Assembly: GCA_019058315.1 (NCBI GenBank)
Contig: JAHPZH010000008.1
Span: 96,001-160,000, forward strand
Origin: Candidatus Helarchaeota archaeon
Lineage (GTDB): Archaea > Asgardarchaeota > Lokiarchaeia > Helarchaeales > RDOG01
DNA: 64,000 nt
Reading direction: 5' to 3'
Part shown: one piece after another, positions 6,530 to 18,279 of the stretch
How the letters are laid out: each line of letters opens with the position of its first letter
Numbering within the stretch: the first letter of the stretch is position 1
Program-made: the position numbers and the translations under genes
The notes under the pieces: model-generated
Told to the model about the DNA's origin: nothing
The model's input: only the letters and a program-made list of their open reading frames with translations
The model's database searches: none

Positions 6530-7600
6530 TTAATATTTTTTAACTCCTTCATCAATATCTACAATATAAGCTTTGCTATTACAACGATGATTAATTACAT
6601 TTGCAATTTTCTTTTGATTATCGGGACAAAATATTACTACACACCCACCATTGCCGCTACCAACAATTTTCCCAGCCAAAGCTCCAGCATTTTTTGTTTC
6701 ATGGATTATTTTTTCAATTTTCGGAGTTGAATTTTCAAGTCCATCACGCATAGCTTTATGATGAATATCAATTAATTCAGCAATTCTTGCAATATCTGGA
6801 TTATTTTTAGAAAGTTCTTCTCTAGCCATTGTTACAACATCACGAACTTGAAGTAAAGCCCATAATCTTTTTGATGGATTTCCGGGTAAATGATTTAGAA
6901 ATTTCTCAACTTTTGATATAGGCGTTTTTTTTAAATCAAAATCAGGAATATGATCTTTCATAAGTCTTATTCCCTCATCAAATTCTGCTCTTCTTAAATT
7001 GTGTGTCTGTAATGTTTTTTTCTTTTCACATGTGTCTCCAATTACAAAGCAATTTTTAATGGATTCTAAATCAATTTTTTCTATATTAGGAGGGGTCACA
7101 CATTCCATAAACATACCATAACCTAGAGCGGATGCAAAATGATCCATATTTCCTCCTTTTTCATTAAATTCCACTACTTCAGCTTGATATGCGAGATCTG
7201 CAATTTTCTCTGGGTTAAATTTTAGATTAAATAATTCACTCAGAAATTTTATCCATGCAACTACCAATACAGAAGAGCTACTTAATCCTGCACCAATAGG
7301 AAGCTTACTCCAGATTTTACAACTTAGACCTTTTGATATTTCAAAGCCTTTTCTCTTAAGAATATTAAAACCTGATCTCAAATAATCTCGTTTCTTTCTA
7401 TAATTTGGAAATTCATGACATAAAAAATCATCCTTTTGCTTAATATCTAGTAAATCTATTGAAATTTTATCTATATTTGAATAATTTCCTTCAATATAAG
7501 TCCGAAGATTAATAGCTGCAGTAATCACAGACAGACCCATATAGTCTTGATCCTCTCCAAATAAACAAATTCTCCCTGGTGCAGAAACTTTGATTGTCAT
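6530..7600 (-). CDS. GHMP-family sugar kinase (galactokinase-like)
   Basis: APGRICLFGE, LPIGAGLSSS, GGNMD and GKIVGSGNGG motifs. Confidence 0.9.
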   Translation of the reverse strand: MTIKVSAPGRICLFGEDQDYMGLSVITAAINLRTYIEGNYSNIDKISIDLLDIKQKDDFLCHEFPNYRKKRDYLRSGFNILKRKGFEISKGLSCKIWSKLPIGAGLSSSSVLVVAWIKFLSELFNLKFNPEKIADLAYQAEVVEFNEKGGNMDHFASALGYGMFMECVTPPNIEKIDLESIKNCFVIGDTCEKKKTLQTHNLRRAEFDEGIRLMKDHIPDFDLKKTPISKVEKFLNHLPGNPSKRLWALLQVRDVVTMAREELSKNNPDIARIAELIDIHHKAMRDGLENSTPKIEKIIHETKNAGALAGKIVGSGNGGCVVIFCPDNQKKIANVINHRCNSKAYIVDIDEGVKKY

Positions 7601-7705
7601 TTCTGATTTTCCTTTATCGATGAGAAATTCATATCTATATTTTTAACTTTTCAATAATTATCATTAATGAATTCAAATTTTTATTTCTTATTATCAAACT
7701 ACTTA

Positions 7706-10700
7706 TTATTGAATTAATTTACAAATTTCTGCATATTCATAATTTTTAGGCATTAACCCAAGGATTTTAAGTATTTTTCCTATAAATTGATTCCTATCTT
7801 TGGCCCTTTGCCAAAAAGGGCGTGGATCCAATCCAGGAAATAGTGGAACTAATTGACTCTTATGTGCTTGAATTGAATCAATTTTTATTCTCATTCCTTT
7901 TTCATCAAAGGGAATAATTTTATTCGCTTCATGAATAGCGTATTCTTCCCATGCAGATTTATAATACCAAAGGTCAGCTTTGGTCGCTTTGGATTTTTTA
8001 AGTGCTATTTTAAAAATTTCAGTAGCCTTCCCATGAGTTCCATGGGGATCAGCGACCTCACCGGGAACAAGAACTATATCTGGTATTTCATTATCAAGGA
8101 TCTTGATTAATGGATTTATATCTGCCTCGGTAATAGTTGATTTTATTATGGTTCCAGTTTCATAAAAAGGTGAGTTTAGAAAAATTAAATTTTCAGAGGA
8201 GATTCCTAGAATTTCTTCTGCAGCGATAGCTTCGGCCTTTCTAACTAAAGTTTTAAGCTGTAATAATTCTTTATAATCAATAGTTTTTTGTAAAATCTTA
8301 TTTTTTATAATATTCGGTAATTTTTTTTGCTCAATATATTCAATAACGTCAGAATTTCGAACTGCAATATTTCCACTGACTACATAAATTATCTTTACGA
8401 TATTTCCATTTTCATTCAAAGCTCTAATGGTATTTCCAATACAAATTGCATCATCATCGGGATGAGGGGAAATAACTAGAATTTTCTTATTGCTAGGCAA
8501 TTTTTCTTTATAGAGTATTTTTTGTTCAGTTCTCTCTATAACTTCTTTTATTAAATCAGATTTATCACCATAAAATTTGATTAGGTTCGAAAGAAAATTA
8601 TTTTTAAAATCTTCAATATCTAGTTGTGATAAGGGTTTATTTAATTTGACAGATAGCCAAATGAGAGCATTATCGATGTGATTTTCGCCTAATTTAGCCT
8701 TTTGACGTTCCATAGACCAGTTTACATTAAAAAATAGCCAAGGAGACATATTACGGCTCAAACGAGAAGCAGCTCCATGTTCTAGAATAAAAACTGTATT
8801 TGGATGAGTTTGGAGTATAGAAGCAGGAACATAAGGATTTACCCTTCCTTCAACTGCTTCTTTAATAATAGGAGCTTTATGTTCTCCTGAGGCAATTAAT
8901 ATAATCTTTTTAGCGTCTAAAATTGTTCCAATTCCCATAGTAAGTGCGTAATGAGGTACTTCTTCAATATATTTGAAAAATTTTGCATTATCAATTCGAG
9001 ATTTTTCTGTTAATTTAATTTTTCGAGATCTGGAATTAAAATCTGAGCCTGCTTCATTAAATCCAATATGCCCACCTATTAAATTCCTATCAGCATCAAA
9101 AAATCCCCCACCAATTCCTAATATTTGAATATCAATACCCCCAGCTTTTTGGATAAGCCTTTCAAATCTGTCACAAAAATTTTCTATATCCTCTTCCTTA
9201 AGCTCTCCATCTGGTATGTGTATATTTTCAGGTTTTATATTTATGTGATCAAAGAGCCAATATTTCATAAATTTATGGTAGCTTTGAGGATGTGTGTTTT
9301 TCATAGGATAGTATTCATCCAAATTGAACGTAATTACTTGAGAAAAATCCAAATTTTCGTCTTTATGCATTCGAACTAGTTCTTTATACATACTAATCGG
9401 AGTACTACCAGTAGCTAGCCCTAAGACAGTATTTGGTTTTTTTCTAATCTGTTCTGCAACAATACTGGCTGCAACTTTTCCCATGACTTCGTCATTATCT
9501 TTAATAATAACCGCAACTTTTTCAGATACTTCTTCAATCCCTTCCATTCCAAGAATTGCGGCTCCTACTGCACCAGTATATCCCCTAATATCTTCACGAA
9601 TACCCCGAAAACAAGATTCATAAACTTCCACTGGAGAATGAATTGGAATATTTTTAGTTTTTAAATTCTTGCGTATTTCATCATAAAAAAAACTCCCGAC
9701 TTTTGCAACTTTACCCCCTATCATAATTTGAGAAATTCCAGCTAAATCACTGATTATTTTAATACCTTTAGCTAAACTTTCGGCAGCTCTATTAAAAATA
9801 TCTATTGCGAATTTATCCCCTTGATTGGCGGCATTAGCAACGATTCTAGTAGTTATTTTTGCAACATCATTATTTACAAGGTCAGTAATAATTGTTTTAT
9901 GTTTTAATATTTCTTCACGGGTTATTTCTGCGATTGCTGTCCCAGATGCATAAGCTTGTATACATCCTTTATTACCACAACCACAAAGTCTCGCATTTTC
10001 AGAATCATCAATTATAATATGCCCTAATTCTCCAGCAAAATAATTTTCTCCATGTAATATCTTATCATCAATTATAATACCTCCTCCCACACCAGTTCCT
10101 AGGGCAAGGGCAACAGAATTGCCTTCAATTTTTGATATTTCTTTTTCTCCTAAAGCCATTACATTTGCATCATTCTCAACGAAGGTGGGAATTCCAATTG
10201 CATTTTCTATTTCAGCTCGTAAATTTACATCTTTCCAATCTTCCATAATAATCATTTTTCTTACAAAAATAGGTCCAATTCCGCCAGGAATACCAACTCC
10301 AATGCTAATGACATTTCTTTCTTTTACTAGTTCTAGTAATTTTTTTATCAAGCTGATTACTTGTTGAATAACAACACGATAACCTTCTTGTTTCTTCGTA
10401 TCTGCTTCTAATCGCTCAATAATATTTCCATTTCCATCAATACAAACAGCTTTTATTGAATGACCACCAATATCTATCCCAATTCCTACTTGATCTCCAA
10501 ACGTCCCTAGATGCTTAATTTTAGATCTCAAAAAATTTTGCTCTTCTCCAGAAAATGGTAATTTTGGTAGTATTTGGATCCCACCACCTAATTTTTCAAA
10601 GGTAAATTTCATCTGTAGGATTAAATTTAGAGAATGAATTAGATAGGATTGTAATTCTTTATCTTCACAAACGAGTTCGATAACCTTTGGACCAAATGTA

Positions 10701-10840
10701 ACTACTATATTAAAAATCTTAATAGCAAATTTCATTAGATTTTTATCTATTTCTTTCTTTGAATCTTCATTAAACTCTGTAAATGCAAATTTACCGATCC
10801 CAAAAGTTTTACCACTAATTAATCGAATTTTTATGTCCAA
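7706..10840 (-). CDS. nagB: trifunctional fusion: ROK sugar kinase + glucosamine-6-phosphate deaminase + PIG-L family deacetylase
   Basis: ROK: GIDIGG, ENDAN, LGTGVGGG, GELGH, CGCGNKGC. NagB: GLATGSTP, FNLDEY, GHIGFNE, TMGIGTI. PIG-L: SPHPDD, DPHGTH, AHKSQ. TTG start. Confidence 0.9.
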   Translation of the reverse strand: MDIKIRLISGKTFGIGKFAFTEFNEDSKKEIDKNLMKFAIKIFNIVVTFGPKVIELVCEDKELQSYLIHSLNLILQMKFTFEKLGGGIQILPKLPFSGEEQNFLRSKIKHLGTFGDQVGIGIDIGGHSIKAVCIDGNGNIIERLEADTKKQEGYRVVIQQVISLIKKLLELVKERNVISIGVGIPGGIGPIFVRKMIIMEDWKDVNLRAEIENAIGIPTFVENDANVMALGEKEISKIEGNSVALALGTGVGGGIIIDDKILHGENYFAGELGHIIIDDSENARLCGCGNKGCIQAYASGTAIAEITREEILKHKTIITDLVNNDVAKITTRIVANAANQGDKFAIDIFNRAAESLAKGIKIISDLAGISQIMIGGKVAKVGSFFYDEIRKNLKTKNIPIHSPVEVYESCFRGIREDIRGYTGAVGAAILGMEGIEEVSEKVAVIIKDNDEVMGKVAASIVAEQIRKKPNTVLGLATGSTPISMYKELVRMHKDENLDFSQVITFNLDEYYPMKNTHPQSYHKFMKYWLFDHINIKPENIHIPDGELKEEDIENFCDRFERLIQKAGGIDIQILGIGGGFFDADRNLIGGHIGFNEAGSDFNSRSRKIKLTEKSRIDNAKFFKYIEEVPHYALTMGIGTILDAKKIILIASGEHKAPIIKEAVEGRVNPYVPASILQTHPNTVFILEHGAASRLSRNMSPWLFFNVNWSMERQKAKLGENHIDNALIWLSVKLNKPLSQLDIEDFKNNFLSNLIKFYGDKSDLIKEVIERTEQKILYKEKLPSNKKILVISPHPDDDAICIGNTIRALNENGNIVKIIYVVSGNIAVRNSDVIEYIEQKKLPNIIKNKILQKTIDYKELLQLKTLVRKAEAIAAEEILGISSENLIFLNSPFYETGTIIKSTITEADINPLIKILDNEIPDIVLVPGEVADPHGTHGKATEIFKIALKKSKATKADLWYYKSAWEEYAIHEANKIIPFDEKGMRIKIDSIQAHKSQLVPLFPGLDPRPFWQRAKDRNQFIGKILKILGLMPKNYEYAEICKLIQ

Positions 10841-11046
10841 TTTAATATCTCCAAACCAAAAGTGTTATTATGAAATGTTTTTTATCCTCTTTTTCGCATT
10901 TCTTTTAAATTTTCTTCATTAACACTACTCATTTTAATCCAAAAAAAATTAAATTAATTTGAATAAATTATTTACTTTCATTAATAAATATGACTTTTTG
11001 GTCTTTGGATATTTTAAATAGTATTTTTAACTGGAGATATTAAAAT

Positions 11047-12183
11047 TTGATAACTTTAAAAGACGAACAAATCCCAAAATTAATGAATGCTGTTGTTCTA
11101 GAAAAACCATTTGTATTAGTTCATAAAAAAATACCGATCTGGCCCTTAGAAGAATTTAAAGATCCCGATTTACTCTTAATTAAAGTAAAGGCTTGTGGTG
11201 TCTGTGGTTCAGATTTTAGATACTATCAAGGAGAGAATCCATGGGCACAGCATACTATAGGACAAAAAATAGAAAATCCACCAAATATTGTACTAGGACA
11301 TGAATTTTCAGGAATTGTTATAGGAGTTTTAAACGATTCCAATAAGAAATGGTTGGGAAAAAGAGTAATTCCAATTTGTTCAAAAACTTGCGGAAAATGT
11401 GCAATGTGTACTACTGGTAGAGAGAATTTATGTGAAAATACTATTCATATGGGTCATGGACAAGGTTGGGATGAGCTCGAATATTATCCAGGAGCGTATG
11501 CAGACTATGTTATAGCATGGGGAAAGGGATGTTTTGAAATTCCAGAATCAGTTACCTTTGAGGAAGCCACCACAATGGATGTTCTTGCAGTTTGTTTACA
11601 TATGATTAATCAAGGGAACGTTGAAAAAGGCGAACCGGTTTTAATATTAGGTTGCGGTCCTGCTGGTAACGGAATTGCCCAAATCATTAAAATTATTGAT
11701 CCCAAAATAGAAATATTTATTGTTGAAAATTCAAAGAGAGCAGTTGAAGTTGCTAAACAATATAAATTTAATTATATTATTAATTCAAACACGAAGAACG
11801 AAGAAGAAATTATCCAATTTATATTAAATAAAACAAATGGTCATGGAGTTAATTCAATTTTTGATAGTATAGGAACCGAATCTAGTTTTAATTTGGGACT
11901 ATCCCTGTTAACCAAGGGCGGAACTTACGTAAACATGGCAGTTCATGATCAAAATATTACCATGAATCAAATGAAGCTTGCTAGTGAACGAAAAATTACA
12001 ACTTCAAGTAATTTTTTAATAGAGGAATATAAACAAACTTTGAAATGGCTTGGTGAGAAAAGAATTAATGTTAAAACTTGGTTGACCGAAATAAAACTTT
12101 CTGAAATCCCTAAAATCTTTCGTAAAATAGTTGATGAAAATAATAGAGGGGAATATTTTAAGATTATAATTAAAAAAGATTAA
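11047..12183 (+). CDS. Zn-dependent medium-chain dehydrogenase (sugar/polyol DH-like)
   Basis: CGVCGSD, GHE, CxxCxxC...C structural Zn site, GCGPAG Rossmann motif. Confidence 0.9.
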   Translation: MITLKDEQIPKLMNAVVLEKPFVLVHKKIPIWPLEEFKDPDLLLIKVKACGVCGSDFRYYQGENPWAQHTIGQKIENPPNIVLGHEFSGIVIGVLNDSNKKWLGKRVIPICSKTCGKCAMCTTGRENLCENTIHMGHGQGWDELEYYPGAYADYVIAWGKGCFEIPESVTFEEATTMDVLAVCLHMINQGNVEKGEPVLILGCGPAGNGIAQIIKIIDPKIEIFIVENSKRAVEVAKQYKFNYIINSNTKNEEEIIQFILNKTNGHGVNSIFDSIGTESSFNLGLSLLTKGGTYVNMAVHDQNITMNQMKLASERKITTSSNFLIEEYKQTLKWLGEKRINVKTWLTEIKLSEIPKIFRKIVDENNRGEYFKIIIKKD

Positions 12184-12200
12184 GAAATTAACAATTTAAC

Positions 12201-13241
12201 TTATTCCATTTCGACAAGTATTTTCACTTCATTATTAGTTGGATCCGATAGAGTTTTGAAAGCTTTAGGGACCTCATCTAGTTTAATTCTTTTTGTAATT
12301 AAAGGTTTTATATTGATCTTTTTTTTCTCTAATAGATTAATACAAGTTCGAAAAGTTTCTTGATTATAAGCGAAAATACCTCTCATTGTTATATTTTTTA
12401 ATAAGAATTGCGTAAACCCTACCATTTCAAAAGGTTCTGCATGTATTCCTATAACAGTGATAAAACCCCCTTTTCTTATTAATTTCAAAGAATCAATATA
12501 AGTTTTTGGTACTCCAGCACAGTCAAAAATATGATCTGGACCGATTTTATTAGTTAATCCGCTTATTTTTGTCCAATCCTTTGGTATAAATACTTCTGAT
12601 GCTCCTACTTCAAGAGCTTTTTTCTGGTTAAATTCCAATGGTTCAATAACAAAGACATCACTAGCTCCAATAGCATTTAAAACTTGGATAGTTACTAGCC
12701 CAATTGTTCCCGCACCAAAGACAACTGCATTTTCTCCAACTTTAATTCCAGATTCTTGGACTGCATAAACTCCAATAGCTAATGGTTCTACAAGAGCTCC
12801 TTCTTCATAGGATACATTTGGAGGTAATAGATGTAACCTCTCAGCTTTGACTTTGATAAACTCTGCCATTGCTCCACTTGAAGTCATTCCAATCCCATCA
12901 CCCTTTTTACACAGATTCTCTTGATTTCTCATACACCAAAAACATTTAAAACAAGGTAGATTTGGGTTTGCAGTGACTCTATCTCCAATTTTCCACTTCT
13001 TAACATCTTCTCCTAATTCAATTATTTCACCAGAGAATTCATGACCTAAAATCAAACCAGTTGGAATAAGAATTCCTGTATGATAGGATTCAACGTCACT
13101 TCCACAAATACCACAGTTTTTAACTTTAATTAAAACCTCATCTTTCTTTATTTTTGGCTTTTTTATATCATCCTTTATTATAATTTCTCCTTTTTTTTGA
13201 AAAACTGCTCCTTTCAATTTAAATAAGCTTCCTTTTAACAA
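12201..13241 (-). CDS. Zn-dependent medium-chain dehydrogenase (butanediol/threonine DH-like)
   Basis: CGICGSD, GHE, CFKCFWC..C, EPLA, GAGTIG; true start may be TTG near 13217. Confidence 0.9.
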   Translation of the reverse strand: MLKGSLFKLKGAVFQKKGEIIIKDDIKKPKIKKDEVLIKVKNCGICGSDVESYHTGILIPTGLILGHEFSGEIIELGEDVKKWKIGDRVTANPNLPCFKCFWCMRNQENLCKKGDGIGMTSSGAMAEFIKVKAERLHLLPPNVSYEEGALVEPLAIGVYAVQESGIKVGENAVVFGAGTIGLVTIQVLNAIGASDVFVIEPLEFNQKKALEVGASEVFIPKDWTKISGLTNKIGPDHIFDCAGVPKTYIDSLKLIRKGGFITVIGIHAEPFEMVGFTQFLLKNITMRGIFAYNQETFRTCINLLEKKKINIKPLITKRIKLDEVPKAFKTLSDPTNNEVKILVEME

Positions 13242-13337
13242 TAACTAATTACATAATAATTTTGAATTAAATATCAATTTCCATAAATAAAAAAATAAGA
13301 TTTTTTTAAATAATCCATTTTTTAATGAACTTTAGAT

Positions 13338-14549
13338 TTATTCAAAGACGAAGGCTGTTTTAATAGAATTATTTATACTTTTATTTGAAGCAACTTCTAA
13401 CGCATTTTTATACTCATCTATTGAGAATTTATGTGTTAAGATATTTTTTACGTTAGCTTGTCCCGATGTTATTAAATCTAACGCGACTTGAAAAGTTCGC
13501 TGTTTTTTTCCGTTTACAATAATATTGCTATAGCCCATAGATGGGATAAGATTAATTTCTTTGAAACACATAGGTGACCAATCAATTTTTATATAGGCTG
13601 GAGTTCCAGTTAAGATCAAAGTTCCTTTTGGTCTTAGTAATCTTAAACTGTTGGATAGAGAGGATTCATTCCCCACAGAATCGATAACAATATCAGCACC
13701 TCCATCTACTGGATAAACATCTTCCATTACAGGTGATAAAACTCTACATCCTAACTTTTTCCCAATTTTTTTAATATGACGGTCTTTTTTTACTAAAAAT
13801 ACCTCATCTACACCTAATTCTTTCGCCAATTCAGCTTGAAAAGGATATTTTGCTACGGCAATTAAATTACATTTACTGAATGCTTTTAAAGCCATTATAG
13901 TAGTTAAACCAATTGTTCCACACCCAACAACAACACAATTTTCATTATTTTTCGGTAGCTTTTTAAAAACACCTTGAATAGAAGTTGCGAATGGCTCAGT
14001 AATAACTGCTTCTTCAAAAGTGACGGATTCAGGTATTTTAATAACTTGAGATTTATGTGCTATTATATATTCACCCCAACCTCCTCTTATATCTTCACAA
14101 ATACCTTGCCATGCTCCTGGTGATATAATACCTTGATCAAAGTTAGAACATAAATTATAGTTTCCTTCTTTACATGAATTACAAGGCTCAATCTCTCTTA
14201 TACTACATGGAAGTACTGGTTCTATTACAACTCGATCTCCAATAGATAAATCTTTTATATTATCTCCAACCTCCGAAATAGTCCCCACATTTTCATGACC
14301 AGGAGTTGCGGGGAATGAAGAATAAAAAGATGTACATGTTGAAAAATTTAATGATAAAAACTTTAGATTGCTTCCACAAATTCCTCCCAATTTCACCTTA
14401 ATTTTCATCCAGTTTTCATTAATTAGTTTTAATTCTGAAACTTCTTCTAGATCTAGTAAATCATAAATTTTAGGTTTAAAATTAGCATCCAAGGATTTTT
14501 TTTGCAAATATTGCATTAATTTTTCCATTTTAATTTCCAAAACTTTCAA
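13338..14549 (-). CDS. Zn-dependent medium-chain dehydrogenase
   Basis: GGICGSN, GHE, C..CNSC..C, EPF, GCGTIG. Confidence 0.88.
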   Translation of the reverse strand: MKVLEIKMEKLMQYLQKKSLDANFKPKIYDLLDLEEVSELKLINENWMKIKVKLGGICGSNLKFLSLNFSTCTSFYSSFPATPGHENVGTISEVGDNIKDLSIGDRVVIEPVLPCSIREIEPCNSCKEGNYNLCSNFDQGIISPGAWQGICEDIRGGWGEYIIAHKSQVIKIPESVTFEEAVITEPFATSIQGVFKKLPKNNENCVVVGCGTIGLTTIMALKAFSKCNLIAVAKYPFQAELAKELGVDEVFLVKKDRHIKKIGKKLGCRVLSPVMEDVYPVDGGADIVIDSVGNESSLSNSLRLLRPKGTLILTGTPAYIKIDWSPMCFKEINLIPSMGYSNIIVNGKKQRTFQVALDLITSGQANVKNILTHKFSIDEYKNALEVASNKSINNSIKTAFVFE

Positions 14550-14676: not shown

Positions 14677-16404
14677 ATGTCAAAAGAAAAAAAAGAAACC
14701 ATGAATGGTGGAGATTTATTTATAAAATCACTTCTTACTGAGAATGTTCGTTATATATTTGGAATCCCTGGAGGACAGCTACTTTCAATATATGATGCAG
14801 TCTATCGTTTTGGTAGAGAAGAAGGTTTAGATTCGATTATGTTTCGGCATGAAGTAGGAGCAGCGCATGCTAGCGATGCTTGGGCTCGCATTACGGGAAC
14901 TCCGGGTGTATGTTTTGGTACAGTTGGTCCAGGGGCTATGAATTTAGTTACTGGAGTTGGAACTGCTTGGTCGGACAATATTCCATTGGTTGTTTTAGTA
15001 CCTCAAGTAAGTAAACCAGTTGAAGATAAATTCACGCTTCAAGGAGGATTGGACCAAATTACTATGTTTAAACCAGTAACGAAATATCAAAAACGTATAG
15101 ATGAAACTGAAAATATTCCTGATGCTGTTCAAAAGGCTTTCAGAGAAGCAATTTCTGGAAGACCTGGTCCAGTGTTATTAGAAATTCCTGCCAATGTTCT
15201 ATTTAAAAAAACAGATAAAAAATTTTCATTCCCTTCTCCTGAAGAGTATCGATTTACAGGTAGAGTAGCAGGTGATCCAAATTTAATTGAAAAAGCATGT
15301 GAGCTGCTTTTAAATGCTGAAAAACCTCTAATGATAGCCGGGGAAGGTGTTATTCAATCTGAGGCATGGCCAGAATTTCAGGAACTTTCTGAATATCTAG
15401 GTATTGCTGCTGGAGCCACAATCCAAGGGATGGGTGCGGTTTCTACTAAGTCTGAGACGGGACTAGGCGCATCACTCGGGACGATTATGCAAGCCTTAAC
15501 ACAAGTAGATGTTTGCTTAGCACTAGGTTGTAAGTTTTCTTTTCTTCTCGCATTTGGTGCTGAACCTATATGGAATAAAAATATTAAAGTGATTCATGTT
15601 GACATTGATCCGGGAATGATTGGAAGAAATAGACCTGTCGAAGTTGGTATTGTGGGTGATAGCAAGCTTGTTCTTCAGCAAATGTTGAAATATATTAAAG
15701 AAAAAGTAAAAAAAATCGAAACTGTAAATGATTGGGTAAAATCATTAAAAGCTTCTATAGATTCTCAAATCAAGAGTGCTATAAAAAAAGCTTCCAAGGA
15801 TAAAACACCTATGCGTCCCCTAAGAATGATTAAGGAAATATTCGAATTTATTGATGAAGATGCAATTATTATAATGGATGGAGGAGACATACTCGTAGAA
15901 GCTAGTACGTTTCTTGAAGCGTTTAACTCACGACCCCCTCGTTCAACTCTCATGGCATCAGGGATGGGAACTTTAGGGGTTTCAATTCCCTATGCAATTG
16001 GAGCCAGACTTGCTGTAAGACATTTAGGACAACCAAACAGACAAGTAATAACCATCTCTGGAGATGGATCATTTATGATTAATGTACAAGATTTAGAAAC
16101 CGCTAAACGATATAATCTTCCATTTATTAGTGTAATTGGCAATAATTCTGCTTGGGGAATGATCAAATCAGGTCAGAAATTGATGATGAGAAAACGTTTT
16201 ATTGATGTAGATTTTGGAGACACAAATTTTGCAGAAATAGCTAAAGGTTTTGGATGTTATGGAGAACGAATAACTGACCCAAATGAGATAAAGCCAGCTT
16301 TGCAAAGAGCTCTAGATTCGAAATTACCAGCAGTCTTAGATGTAATAATAGATTTTGAAACTCCCGAGGGAACAGTTCTCATGGCTTCAATGGGAATTCT
16401 TTAA
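14677..16404 (+). CDS. thiamine pyrophosphate-dependent enzyme (AHAS-like / 2-hydroxyacyl-CoA lyase-like), copy 1
   Basis: FGIPGG, RHE (catalytic Glu), TVGPG, GRPGPVLLEIP, GDG...NN TPP motif. Confidence 0.9.
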   Translation: MSKEKKETMNGGDLFIKSLLTENVRYIFGIPGGQLLSIYDAVYRFGREEGLDSIMFRHEVGAAHASDAWARITGTPGVCFGTVGPGAMNLVTGVGTAWSDNIPLVVLVPQVSKPVEDKFTLQGGLDQITMFKPVTKYQKRIDETENIPDAVQKAFREAISGRPGPVLLEIPANVLFKKTDKKFSFPSPEEYRFTGRVAGDPNLIEKACELLLNAEKPLMIAGEGVIQSEAWPEFQELSEYLGIAAGATIQGMGAVSTKSETGLGASLGTIMQALTQVDVCLALGCKFSFLLAFGAEPIWNKNIKVIHVDIDPGMIGRNRPVEVGIVGDSKLVLQQMLKYIKEKVKKIETVNDWVKSLKASIDSQIKSAIKKASKDKTPMRPLRMIKEIFEFIDEDAIIIMDGGDILVEASTFLEAFNSRPPRSTLMASGMGTLGVSIPYAIGARLAVRHLGQPNRQVITISGDGSFMINVQDLETAKRYNLPFISVIGNNSAWGMIKSGQKLMMRKRFIDVDFGDTNFAEIAKGFGCYGERITDPNEIKPALQRALDSKLPAVLDVIIDFETPEGTVLMASMGIL

Positions 16405-16422
16405 TATTTTTTAATTTTTTTT
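16405..16422 (+). terminator. oligo-T archaeal-type terminator
   Basis: TATTTTTTAATTTTTTTT directly after the stop codon; a near-identical tract follows the paralogue. Confidence 0.55.
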
Positions 16423-16548
16423 CTCGATTTCTTTTAAAAATTGCTTTTTTTGGTTAAAATACACTATTTTAGTATATTATCGATAAACAAGAATTATAAA
16501 TCAAATCTAAAATACATTATAACAATAATAAATAACCAAGGTGAATTT

Positions 16549-18279
16549 ATGTCTGAAGAAAAAAAGGAAACTATGAATGGTGGAGACTTATTAATAAAAT
16601 CCTTACTTGCTGAAAATGTTAGGTACATGTTTGGTGTTCCAGGGGGTCAACTCTTAACAACTTATGATGCGGTATATCGTTTTGGAAGAGAGGAAGGAAT
16701 CGATACATTAATGTTTCAGCACGAAGCAGGAGCAGCGCATGCATGTGATGCTTGGGCCAGAGTAACAGGTACTCCATCAGTATGTTTTGGGACAGTTGGT
16801 CCTGGTGCCTTAAATTTAATTGCCGGTGTTGGTTCTGCGTGGTCAGATAATATACCGATGGTTGTATTAGTTCCCCAGTGTGGTAAAGCGATTAAGGATA
16901 AATTTACGCTTCAAGGTGGATTAGATCAAATTACATTATATAAACCTGTCACAAAATATCAAAAACATGTTGAAGATGCTGAAGATATCCCAGATGCTGT
17001 TAAAAAAGCTTTTAGAGAAACAATTACCGGAAGACCAAGACCAGTATTACTAGAAATTCAAGAAGATGCTTTATTTGGAAAGACAGATAAAAAAATCACA
17101 TTTCCAAATCCAGAATTATATAGATTTATGGGGAGAGTTGCAGGAGATCCAAATTTGATAGAACGAGCTTGTGAATTATTACTTAAAGCTGAAAAACCAT
17201 TGATGATAGCTGGAGGTGGAGTTATACGATCAGAAGCATGGCATGAATTTCAGGAACTTTCGGAATATTTAGGTATTGCTGCAGGAACTACAATTCAAGG
17301 AATTGGATCGATTCCAATTACAAGCGAGACAGCACTTGGTTCAGCAGTAACTTCAATGATGCAAGCTATAACTCAAACAGATGTAGTATTAGCACTTGGA
17401 ATGAAATTTTCTTGGGCTATGGGATTTGGTGCGGAACCATTTTGGAATAAAAAAACCAAAGTAATTCATGTTGATATAGACCCAACTATTATTGGAAGAA
17501 ATCGTCCTGTAGAAATTGGAATTGTCGGAGATTGCAAACTTGTACTTCAACAAATGTTAAAAATAATTAAACAAAAAGCAAAAAAGGTAGAAACTACGAG
17601 TGATTGGGTTAAATCATTGAGAGCAGCTAGAGAATCTAATGTAAAAACCTTATTAAAAAAAGCTTCAAAGGAAAAAACTCCTATGCGTCCTCAAAGAATG
17701 CTAAAAGAAGTTTTTGAATTTATTGATGAAGATGCAATTCTTGCACTTGATGGGGGAGATTTACATGTGTTTACGATGGATTATATTGATCTGTTTAAAC
17801 CTAGACCTCCTCGTGCAACGATAACTGCAGCAGTAGGGATGGGTCAATTAGGTACAGGAATTCCTTATGCAATCGGAGCGAAACTAGCTGCCAACCACTT
17901 AGGACAACCAGATAGGCAAGTAGTAAATATAACGGGCGACGGAGCATTTATGATTAATGTGCAAGAACTAGCAACTGCGAAACGGTATAATTTACCAATT
18001 ATCTGCGTAGTAGGTAATAATTCAGCATGGGGTATGATAAAGTCTGGACAGAAGTTGCTTATGAAAAAACGCTTCATAGACGTGGACTTTGAAGATGTAA
18101 ATTATGCAGAAATTGCTAAAGGATTTGCATGTTATGGGGAACGTGTAACTGATCCAAAACAAATAAAGCCAGCTTTACAGCGTGCTATTGATTCAAAATT
18201 ACCGGCTGTGTTAGATATAGTAATTGCATTTGAAACACCTGAAGCTTTAACGCTAATGGCTCAGATGGGTGTTCTCTAA
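16549..18279 (+). CDS. thiamine pyrophosphate-dependent enzyme, copy 2 (tandem paralogue)
   Basis: Collinear with copy 1 over its full length. Start revised to ATG 16549 (MSEEKKETMNGG matches MSKEKKETMNGG; GGTGA RBS upstream). Confidence 0.9.
   Translation: MSEEKKETMNGGDLLIKSLLAENVRYMFGVPGGQLLTTYDAVYRFGREEGIDTLMFQHEAGAAHACDAWARVTGTPSVCFGTVGPGALNLIAGVGSAWSDNIPMVVLVPQCGKAIKDKFTLQGGLDQITLYKPVTKYQKHVEDAEDIPDAVKKAFRETITGRPRPVLLEIQEDALFGKTDKKITFPNPELYRFMGRVAGDPNLIERACELLLKAEKPLMIAGGGVIRSEAWHEFQELSEYLGIAAGTTIQGIGSIPITSETALGSAVTSMMQAITQTDVVLALGMKFSWAMGFGAEPFWNKKTKVIHVDIDPTIIGRNRPVEIGIVGDCKLVLQQMLKIIKQKAKKVETTSDWVKSLRAARESNVKTLLKKASKEKTPMRPQRMLKEVFEFIDEDAILALDGGDLHVFTMDYIDLFKPRPPRATITAAVGMGQLGTGIPYAIGAKLAANHLGQPDRQVVNITGDGAFMINVQELATAKRYNLPIICVVGNNSAWGMIKSGQKLLMKKRFIDVDFEDVNYAEIAKGFACYGERVTDPKQIKPALQRAIDSKLPAVLDIVIAFETPEALTLMAQMGVL

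Follow-up and report, generated by a model that had tools for sequence, protein, structure and literature searches.

A single gene in the window analysed here (64,000 nucleotides; positions 96,001 to 160,000 of the forward strand of contig JAHPZH010000008.1, Candidatus Helarchaeota archaeon, assembly GCA_019058315.1) encodes a protein of four parts: an orphan N-terminal domain, a ROK sugar kinase domain, a NagB glucosamine-6-phosphate (GlcN-6-P) deaminase domain and a PIG-L/LmbE zinc deacetylase domain. On sequence comparison this triple fusion is a derived variant of the widespread two-domain NagB-PIG-L family, to which the N-terminal domain and the ROK domain have been added. With a probability of roughly 0.55 we consider it a trifunctional cytoplasmic enzyme that would convert N-acetylglucosamine (GlcNAc) to fructose-6-phosphate, the order of the first two steps being left open.

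In the scheme that we propose, free GlcNAc, such as might be released by the two hexosaminidases of glycoside hydrolase family 20 (GH20) in the genome, would yield fructose-6-phosphate, acetate and ammonia. The ROK domain would phosphorylate C6, the PIG-L domain would remove the acetyl group by means of a His/Asp/His-bound metal and so replace the absent NagA, and the NagB domain would isomerise and deaminate GlcN-6-P. Alternatively, the deacetylase would first convert GlcNAc to glucosamine (GlcN), which the kinase would then turn into GlcN-6-P, as in Thermococcus; this order fits equally well. We infer the activity of each domain, each substrate and the order of the first two steps; channelling between the active sites would be pure inference. 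The canonical order of kinase, deacetylase and deaminase seems to us possible, although short of probable.

The genome itself lends weight to this reading. The source genome (5.79 Mb in 12 contigs, 94% complete) contains no NagA (best score 31.6 bits against a cut-off of 226) and no second NagB, and the fusion is therefore the only visible route through GlcN-6-P. It does contain one other ROK protein (341 residues) and five stand-alone PIG-L proteins; no GH18 chitinase was found in it.

The NagB-PIG-L core and the integrity of the gene

Pfam places ROK at residues 120-396 (E 8e-50; 170 bits), Glucosamine_iso at residues 455-577 with a second stretch (2e-18) and PIG-L at residues 788-942 (1e-16; 62 bits against the PF02585 gathering cut-off of 28.2). 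The NCBIfam model of the long NagB-PIG-L proteins (NF002557/PRK02122) covers residues 438-1030 with 576 bits (cut-off 384) and is itself covered over positions 25-639 of 653. Compared with the two-domain architecture of ∼600-660 residues, the fusion is thus longer by 436 residues at its N-terminus. An IQ-TREE quick search on 43 rows of the NagB-PIG-L region groups the triple fusions as a single clade (SH-aLRT 99) within the archaeal two-domain forms, and it is because of this nesting that we describe them as derived from the NF002557 family.

Residues 444-695 match TIGR00502 (nagB) at 280 bits, above the equivalog cut-off of 236.9, and NagB of Bacillus subtilis (PDB 2bkv) aligns over the whole NagB domain (E 7e-59). 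The NagB motifs NLDEY (506-510) and GHIGFNE (590-596) are present, and within them D508, H591 and E596, which align to 2bkv, are invariant in the 13 fusions; we take their catalytic roles to be those given in the literature on E. coli NagB. A 10-residue insert at residues 578-587 is typical of the long-NagB family. The region that joins the NagB domain to the PIG-L domain had been called a linker in the original prediction, a description that has to be withdrawn: model coverage and alignment indicate a conserved helical region throughout the NF002557 family, with P700, W701, W708 and A725 invariant in 28 two- and three-domain proteins and with helices in the AlphaFold2 (AF2) model.

The PIG-L domain carries the motifs SPHPDDD (792-798), DPHGTH (931-936) and AHKSQ (992-996), and all of the signature residues (H793, D795, D796, H933, H936 and H993) are kept. 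SPHPDDD, DPHGTH and HKSQ are identical in 19 of 19 aligned two-domain relatives, from Bacteroidota to archaea. The assignment of HPDD and HxxH as metal-ligand and catalytic motifs presumably carries over from the structures of MshB and the diacetylchitobiose deacetylases (Dac). The closest solved relatives of this domain are archaeal Dac enzymes (3wl4, 3we7 and 8bgn), although the matches are weak (E 1e-5 to 2e-4) and fall mainly in the HPDD region, where PHPDD of 3wl4 and 3we7 aligns with HPDD of the fusion. Judged by their motifs, the catalytic sites of both the deaminase and the deacetylase are intact. The AF2 model of the whole protein (13-sequence alignment; mean pLDDT 62.9, pTM 0.44) is too poor to show domain contacts, inter-domain geometry or channelling, and a fold search with it recovered ROK and NagB only.

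The reading frame is secure. Its TTG start is the earliest start past the upstream stop (the stop-to-stop frame is 1052 codons), and it matches Met1 in 12 of 12 full-length homologues in the alignment; a GGAG in front of it is a putative ribosome-binding signal. The G+C content of the window is ∼30%. Other assemblies hold four full-length orthologues of 76-83% identity (P0003 and P0005-P0007) and one partial orthologue of 89% identity (P0004). Positions 7600-10663, with every domain junction, are also covered at 90-99% identity by contigs that an independent sediment study produced (runs X2-X4). Within the open reading frame (ORF), the sole indel in these contigs is an in-frame TTA, and their single-base indels are all intergenic, below position 7706. 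The uninterrupted ORF described in the original prediction is thereby confirmed, and the possibility raised there that reads might break it fails against the orthologues and the independent contigs; the earlier domain limits, domain order and motifs were also correct by Pfam, NCBIfam and motif reading, the limits being off by a few residues at most. We regard an assembly chimera or read-through between adjacent genes as practically negligible, since 12 full-length homologues come from different assemblies, the fusion occurs in seven species genomes and all junctions are bridged by the independent contigs; nothing was found in its favour.

The ROK domain and competing readings

The ROK domain displays the motifs DIGGHS (123-128), ENDAN (222-226), GELGH (270-274) and CGCGNKGC (286-293). 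Compared with 119 stand-alone ROK homologues, it keeps D123, G125, G126, N223, D224, T249, G250, E271, H274 and the cysteines 286, 288 and 293, each of which is found in 117-119 of the 119. The catalytic base D224 (in NDAN), the ExGH of the sugar site, the zinc cysteines and GTGVGGG are thus all intact. The kinase domain of GNE is among the best PDB matches to the ROK domain (2yhw and 3eo3, E 4e-30). The complete set of ROK adenosine triphosphate (ATP) motifs (DxGGT, GTGxGGG and GGG) is not present, as DIGGH and IGGK deviate from it. Positions 127-128 follow the pattern [H/K/R/N][S/T] across the triple fusions, except in one fully decayed copy (genome G138), which could mean that the phosphate loop has shifted and is not dead.

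The sister lineages serve as a natural control. Clade b of the triple fusions (P0008-P0015, from another Asgard class; genomes G067, G072 and G075) consists of proteins of 1001-1021 residues with 52-60% identity to the Helarchaeota protein. In their PIG-L domain they show the changes H793R, D795G, H936K and H993L, and in their ROK domain T249E and the replacement of GGK by GS, to which P0008-P0012 add D123E and a deletion of 36-42 residues. In the G138 fusion, all ATP motifs are lost, HPDDD is kept and DPHGTH has become DPHGTQ, the second His of HxxH being replaced by Gln. All three genomes with a dead PIG-L domain in their fusion (G067, G072 and G075) contain a canonical NagA (334-340 bits), and in two of them it lies ∼3.4 kb from a full-length stand-alone ROK gene (G067:C1:3686017-3691482 and G075:C41:23854-29327), likely as a conventional nagK-nagA pair feeding the deaminase of the fusion. 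No NagA was detected at E ≤ 1e-5 in G000, G128 or G138, and in G000 and G128 the PIG-L motifs are intact. The kinase and deacetylase motifs of clade b thus appear to have decayed together where canonical enzymes exist, which is as expected if both domains served GlcNAc catabolism in their intact form.

The decayed PIG-L domain may have found other employment. In G067 (L019 1-1437) and G138 (L109 940-1500), the gene directly 3' of the fusion encodes a GH2 glycosidase, not the GHMP kinase that follows the fusion in the window. In G065 (L110 45-1493), a 366-residue remnant made up of the bridge and a PIG-L-like domain precedes the GH2 gene, the N-terminal, ROK and NagB parts being absent and an unrelated YjeF gene lying upstream. 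This arrangement suggests a separate function, connected with the GH2 enzyme, for the decayed PIG-L-like domain.

A number of observations count against a trifunctional enzyme. In the ROK domain, the Thr of DxGGT is replaced by His (T127H), a residue that never occurs there in the homologues (Thr in 115 of 119, Ser in 3 and Gly in 1), and Lys takes the place of the third Gly in the adenosine motif (G377K, giving IGGK), whereas Gly is found in 117 of 119. The same GGK recurs in Pontibacter, in ROK proteins that have an N-terminal extension and no ATP motifs. The TIGR00744 ROK glucokinase model gives 185 bits, below its cut-off of 260, and the ATP motifs are lost in all other branches of the fusion clade, where the sugar and zinc residues are retained. 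The adjacent GHMP kinase gene, a conserved neighbour, is a second kinase candidate. With respect to the PIG-L domain, the complementarity with NagA was seen in a small sample of six genomes, of which three belong to a single genus, and no biochemical assay of any member of the NagB-PIG-L (long NagB) family was found in the literature. We take both BT_0258 of Bacteroides thetaiotaomicron and the "NagB" of the Flavobacterium johnsoniae ChiUL to be of the long NagB-PIG-L type; if this holds for BT_0258, PIG-L would not be a simple NagA substitute in bacteria. B. thetaiotaomicron, which also gave PIG-L matches in a control search, has NagA isozymes, and BT_0258 is listed as a deaminase isozyme (PMC13634575); the F. 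johnsoniae protein could not be expressed (PMC5127042).

The two substitutions lower the claim to a typical ROK kinase and would nevertheless be compatible with kinase activity. Because the core motifs are kept, but T127H, G377K and the sub-threshold TIGR00744 score stand beside them, we regard kinase activity as unproven and on balance probable. The original prediction had placed the whole GlcNAc pathway in one polypeptide. That claim has the support of the genome context in so far as the fusion is the sole visible route through GlcN-6-P in a genome lacking NagA and any other NagB; the remainder hangs on the activity of the ROK domain, with its two ATP-site departures at positions that are 97-98% invariant and the loss of ATP motifs in sister branches.

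These same departures also speak for the view that the protein is a bifunctional deacetylase-deaminase, in which the N-terminal and ROK domains would be non-catalytic, binding an amino sugar through the ExGH and zinc site and acting either in allosteric sensing or as a scaffold for oligomerisation of the NagB-PIG-L core; phosphorylation would then fall to the other ROK protein, to the neighbouring GHMP kinase or to a step coupled to transport. GGK is common to ROK proteins without ATP motifs, and the ATP motifs disappear step by step in clades b and b2 and in G138, where ENDAN (ENDGN in G138), GE[LI]GH and the Cys cluster are strictly kept. Loss of the ATP motifs with retention of the sugar and zinc site is the pattern of ROK repressors such as Mlc and NagC, and the presence of an additional ROK-lobe-like N-terminal domain suggests structural elaboration over catalysis. 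However, clade a retains D123-x-G-G, D224, the GTG phosphate-2 motif and the ∼40-residue C-lobe segment that is deleted in clade b, the 127-128 pattern looks shifted rather than destroyed (G138 excepted), and Pfam finds no DNA-binding or other effector domain. We judge a non-catalytic ROK domain unlikely, although it is viable and the main competitor of the trifunctional reading. A ROK repressor of the NagC/Mlc type fused to an enzyme was also considered and rejected: there was no match to a helix-turn-helix (HTH) family in Pfam, and the model of the N-terminal domain is not a winged helix.

If all three domains are active, they could also act in the Thermococcus-type order, with PIG-L acting on GlcNAc or on the non-reducing end of chitobiose, ROK on GlcN and NagB last. 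This is a sub-case of the trifunctional reading, and its probability is counted inside that given above. The nearest relatives of the ROK domain are glucokinase-like, and glucokinase-like ROK enzymes often accept GlcN. For the PIG-L domain, the nearest solved structures are those of diacetylchitobiose deacetylases from Pyrococcus and Thermococcus, enzymes whose substrates are sugars without a phosphate group (Tanaka et al. 2004, cited in PMC6566704). Set against this, the match to Dac is weak and mostly confined to the HPDD region, the genome has no GH18 chitinase, and PIG-L is fused to a GlcN-6-P-specific enzyme in thousands of bacteria, which argues for GlcN-6-P as its product. Such an order appears quite unlikely. 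Less likely by far is a protein that is a deaminase only, with pseudoenzymes on both sides; this is the state inferred for clade b, but the PIG-L signature of the Helarchaeota protein is intact and identical to the family consensus, and its genome has no NagA to feed the deaminase.

Combining these points, we tentatively propose, at somewhat less than even odds, that the PIG-L domain is a non-orthologous replacement of NagA, namely a GlcNAc-6-phosphate deacetylase of the LmbE fold, and that the fusion is a self-contained GlcNAc-to-fructose-6-phosphate machine whose ROK domain has a remodelled phosphate loop (GG-His-Ser and GG-Lys). Under this proposal, the sister lineages would represent stages in the step-by-step change of the same scaffold into a deaminase with a pseudoenzyme domain on either side, a change that would have set in when canonical NagA and ROK genes had become available.

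Distribution, N-terminal domain and neighbouring genes

Among 5.8 billion proteins searched, 15 more clusters have the ROK-NagB(-PIG-L) layout, 12 of them full-length (1001-1045 residues) and 3 partial, and all that are named come from Asgard metagenome-assembled genomes; the source names of close homologues vary between Promethearchaeota, Helarchaeota and Hodarchaeota. Of 400 Asgard species genomes, ∼7 carry the fusion: that of the window, four from a single genus of another class (where a fifth genome has a remnant) and G138, which belongs to the same class as the genome of the window and has its copy split over contig ends. Database annotation labels these proteins as "glucosamine-6-phosphate deaminase" only, and no paper joining ROK, NagB and PIG-L was found in the literature, in agreement with the earlier statement that the triple fusion was not known as described. 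The archaeal two-domain forms are 605-622 residues long and 48-55% identical to the core of the fusion, and those of Bacteroidota, Gemmatimonadota and Planctomycetota are ∼640 residues long and ∼40% identical; the original prediction's statement on double fusions in Bacteroidota is thus borne out and extends to these other groups. A genome of the same family as the source genome (G128) encodes a two-domain protein that falls outside the triple-fusion clade and groups with a protein labelled Lokiarchaeota. Because the triple fusions form one nested clade, the addition of ROK looks like a single event, which seems to have taken place in an archaeal ancestor, and the scattered occurrence of the fusion across two classes suggests that it was transferred among Asgard archaea. 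The donor of the ROK domain is not identifiable, since even the closest stand-alone ROK proteins share no more than 29-38% identity with it. Stand-alone NagB genes of 248-291 codons, 48-51% identical to the NagB domain, occur in a few genomes of the large family f6 (G278:C161, G272:C82, G241:C12, G274:C49 and G276:C3), and NagB is therefore not confined to fusions in the phylum.

In Cytophagales (Pontibacter, Cyclobacteriaceae and Flammeovirgaceae), at least four loci have a separate ROK gene 20-37 bp in front of a co-oriented nagB-PIG-L gene, in the order of the domains of the fusion. Two of these ROK proteins are kinase-sized (318 and 328 residues), their genes lying 20-31 bp upstream. The two from Pontibacter have 416-417 residues, no ATP motifs and an N-terminal extension, with a sub-threshold match to HTH_24 in one, and they may be regulators. 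At one locus (L060), a SusD-like gene lies just upstream.

The N-terminal domain is kept in all 13 triple fusions, among which KLGG (83-86) and LPF (94-96) are invariant. A profile search of 1.84 billion representatives found it in triple fusions only, with the exception of one match, P0124, a 1626-residue repeat protein. We took its nine matches, at profile positions 46-77, to be spurious and rejected it as a carrier of the domain; it has an F-box domain match, and no stretch among its other Pfam listings passes alone. A word-based search of shorter proteins likewise gave no instance of the N-terminal domain as a mobile domain. When the domain was modelled alone with AF2 (pLDDT 84.6), it adopted the order strand-strand-helix-strand-helix-strand-helix. 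An exhaustive structural comparison (VIA) placed ROK/ASKHA C-lobes at the top (7rhe, Z 7.0; 5nck, 6.2; 4ija, 5.7; 2yhw, 5.6), with Z values against ROK C-lobes of 7.0-5.0, a range in which common folds match by arrangement alone; many of the first 50 rows are ROK or other ASKHA-fold proteins. The ESM Atlas returned ROK clusters (TM 0.54-0.57) and an RNase-H-like cluster, and Foldseek gave no match in the PDB at E ≤ 0.001. A duplicate of the ROK C-lobe recognisable by sequence was rejected, as hhalign aligned the domain to residues 340-400 of the ROK domain with only 28% probability. The modelled fold is a lead, not a finding, toward an RNase-H-like lobe that is possibly a relic of a duplicated ROK half. 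The domain that had been called unknown thus remains an orphan by sequence, but its modelled fold is RNase-H-like and resembles a ROK C-lobe.

Downstream of the fusion, the galactokinase-like GHMP kinase is divergent and falls under every NCBIfam equivalog cut-off. A 47%-identical orthologue (L021 3459-4523) adjoins the two-domain NagB-PIG-L gene of G128, and the GHMP gene is a possible operon partner of the fusion. GHMP sugar kinases usually phosphorylate C1, and this neighbour could be an amino-sugar 1-kinase. The N6 DNA methyltransferase gene directly beyond it is probably an unrelated restriction-modification gene. Upstream of the fusion lie three paralogous zinc-type alcohol dehydrogenase genes and then two tandem genes for enzymes dependent on thiamine pyrophosphate (TPP), and no link was seen between any of these and the amino-sugar gene. 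Coordinates are collected in Table 1.

Table 1. Coordinates of the fusion gene, its parts, its neighbours and the comparable Cytophagales loci
Feature	Position	Strand	Basis or remark
Whole gene, 1044 codons plus stop, TTG start	7706..10840	-	Start aligned to homologues; no frame break in independent contigs
GGAG, Shine-Dalgarno-like	10849..10852	-	8 nt 5' of TTG; read from sequence
N-terminal domain, residues 1-116, orphan in sequence	10493..10840	-	Kept in 13/13 triple fusions
ROK domain, residues 117-436	9533..10492	-	Pfam ROK; best PDB match glucokinase 3vgk, E 3e-35
NagB glucosamine-6-phosphate deaminase domain, residues 437-696	8753..9532	-	TIGR00502; alignment to PDB 2bkv
Conserved helical bridge from NagB to PIG-L, residues 697-784	8489..8752	-	NF002557 coverage; alignment; AF2
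PIG-L/LmbE zinc deacetylase domain, residues 785-1044	7709..8488	-	Pfam PIG-L; motifs
GHMP galactokinase-like sugar kinase gene	6530..7600	-	105 bp downstream of fusion, co-oriented; Pfam GHMP_kinases_N/C and galactose-binding signature
N6 DNA methyltransferase gene, 673 residues	4480-6501	-	N6_Mtase and Eco57I-type domains
Three zinc-type alcohol dehydrogenase paralogues	11047-14549	1 plus, 2 minus	
Two tandem TPP-dependent enzymes	14677-18279		
Cytophagales ROK and nagB-PIG-L loci	L040 5722-8976; L029 5416-8625; L060 5980-8923; L069 4944-7874		Pontibacter, Cyclobacteriaceae, Flammeovirgaceae

Significance and comparison with known systems

If the protein is active as proposed, one gene would cover the assimilation of amino sugars (GlcNAc from necromass, glycans or peptidoglycan) in an Asgard archaeon that lacks NagA. 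Reconstructions that label the protein merely as a glucosamine-6-phosphate deaminase would be corrected, and a first functional handle would be gained on the PIG-L half of the widespread NagB-PIG-L family. The clade as a whole spans a natural gradation, with an intact three-enzyme fusion at one end and, at the other, a deaminase whose two companion domains have decayed, and may serve as a model for the change from enzyme to pseudoenzyme scaffold; the intact and decayed sister clades and the absence of NagA both raise its interest somewhat.

All of the catalytic modules belong to known families, and the fusing of consecutive enzymes of a pathway is familiar, so this is no new kind of system. 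With the long NagB-PIG-L proteins of NF002557/PRK02122, the fusion has in common the insert in NagB, the helical bridge and the PIG-L motifs, and it differs from them by its orphan lobe and ROK domain. The same three steps are proposed here as are carried out by NagK, NagA and NagB of the E. coli type, with a kinase of the same ROK family and a deaminase of the same NagB family; however, the E. coli-type deacetylase NagA has an amidohydrolase fold where the fusion has PIG-L/LmbE, and the fusion is a single chain with an atypical ROK ATP site. The chitin pathway of Thermococcus and Pyrococcus (Dac, GlmA, an ADP-dependent kinase and GlmD) shares with it an archaeal deacetylase of the PIG-L family, but that pathway uses separate enzymes, with SIS-fold GlmD and the ADP-dependent kinase in the places that NagB and ROK take in the fusion, for which no accompanying GH18 was found. 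Animal GNE, which joins a UDP-GlcNAc 2-epimerase to a ROK kinase for N-acetylmannosamine, is a precedent for the fusion of ROK to an amino-sugar enzyme of the same pathway, although the partner enzyme is another one, the direction is biosynthetic and ROK is at the C-terminus. Closest of all are the clade b triple fusions, which have the same four-part architecture and form one clade with the Helarchaeota protein, and which differ from it by a dead PIG-L domain, a decayed ROK domain and genomes that contain NagA.

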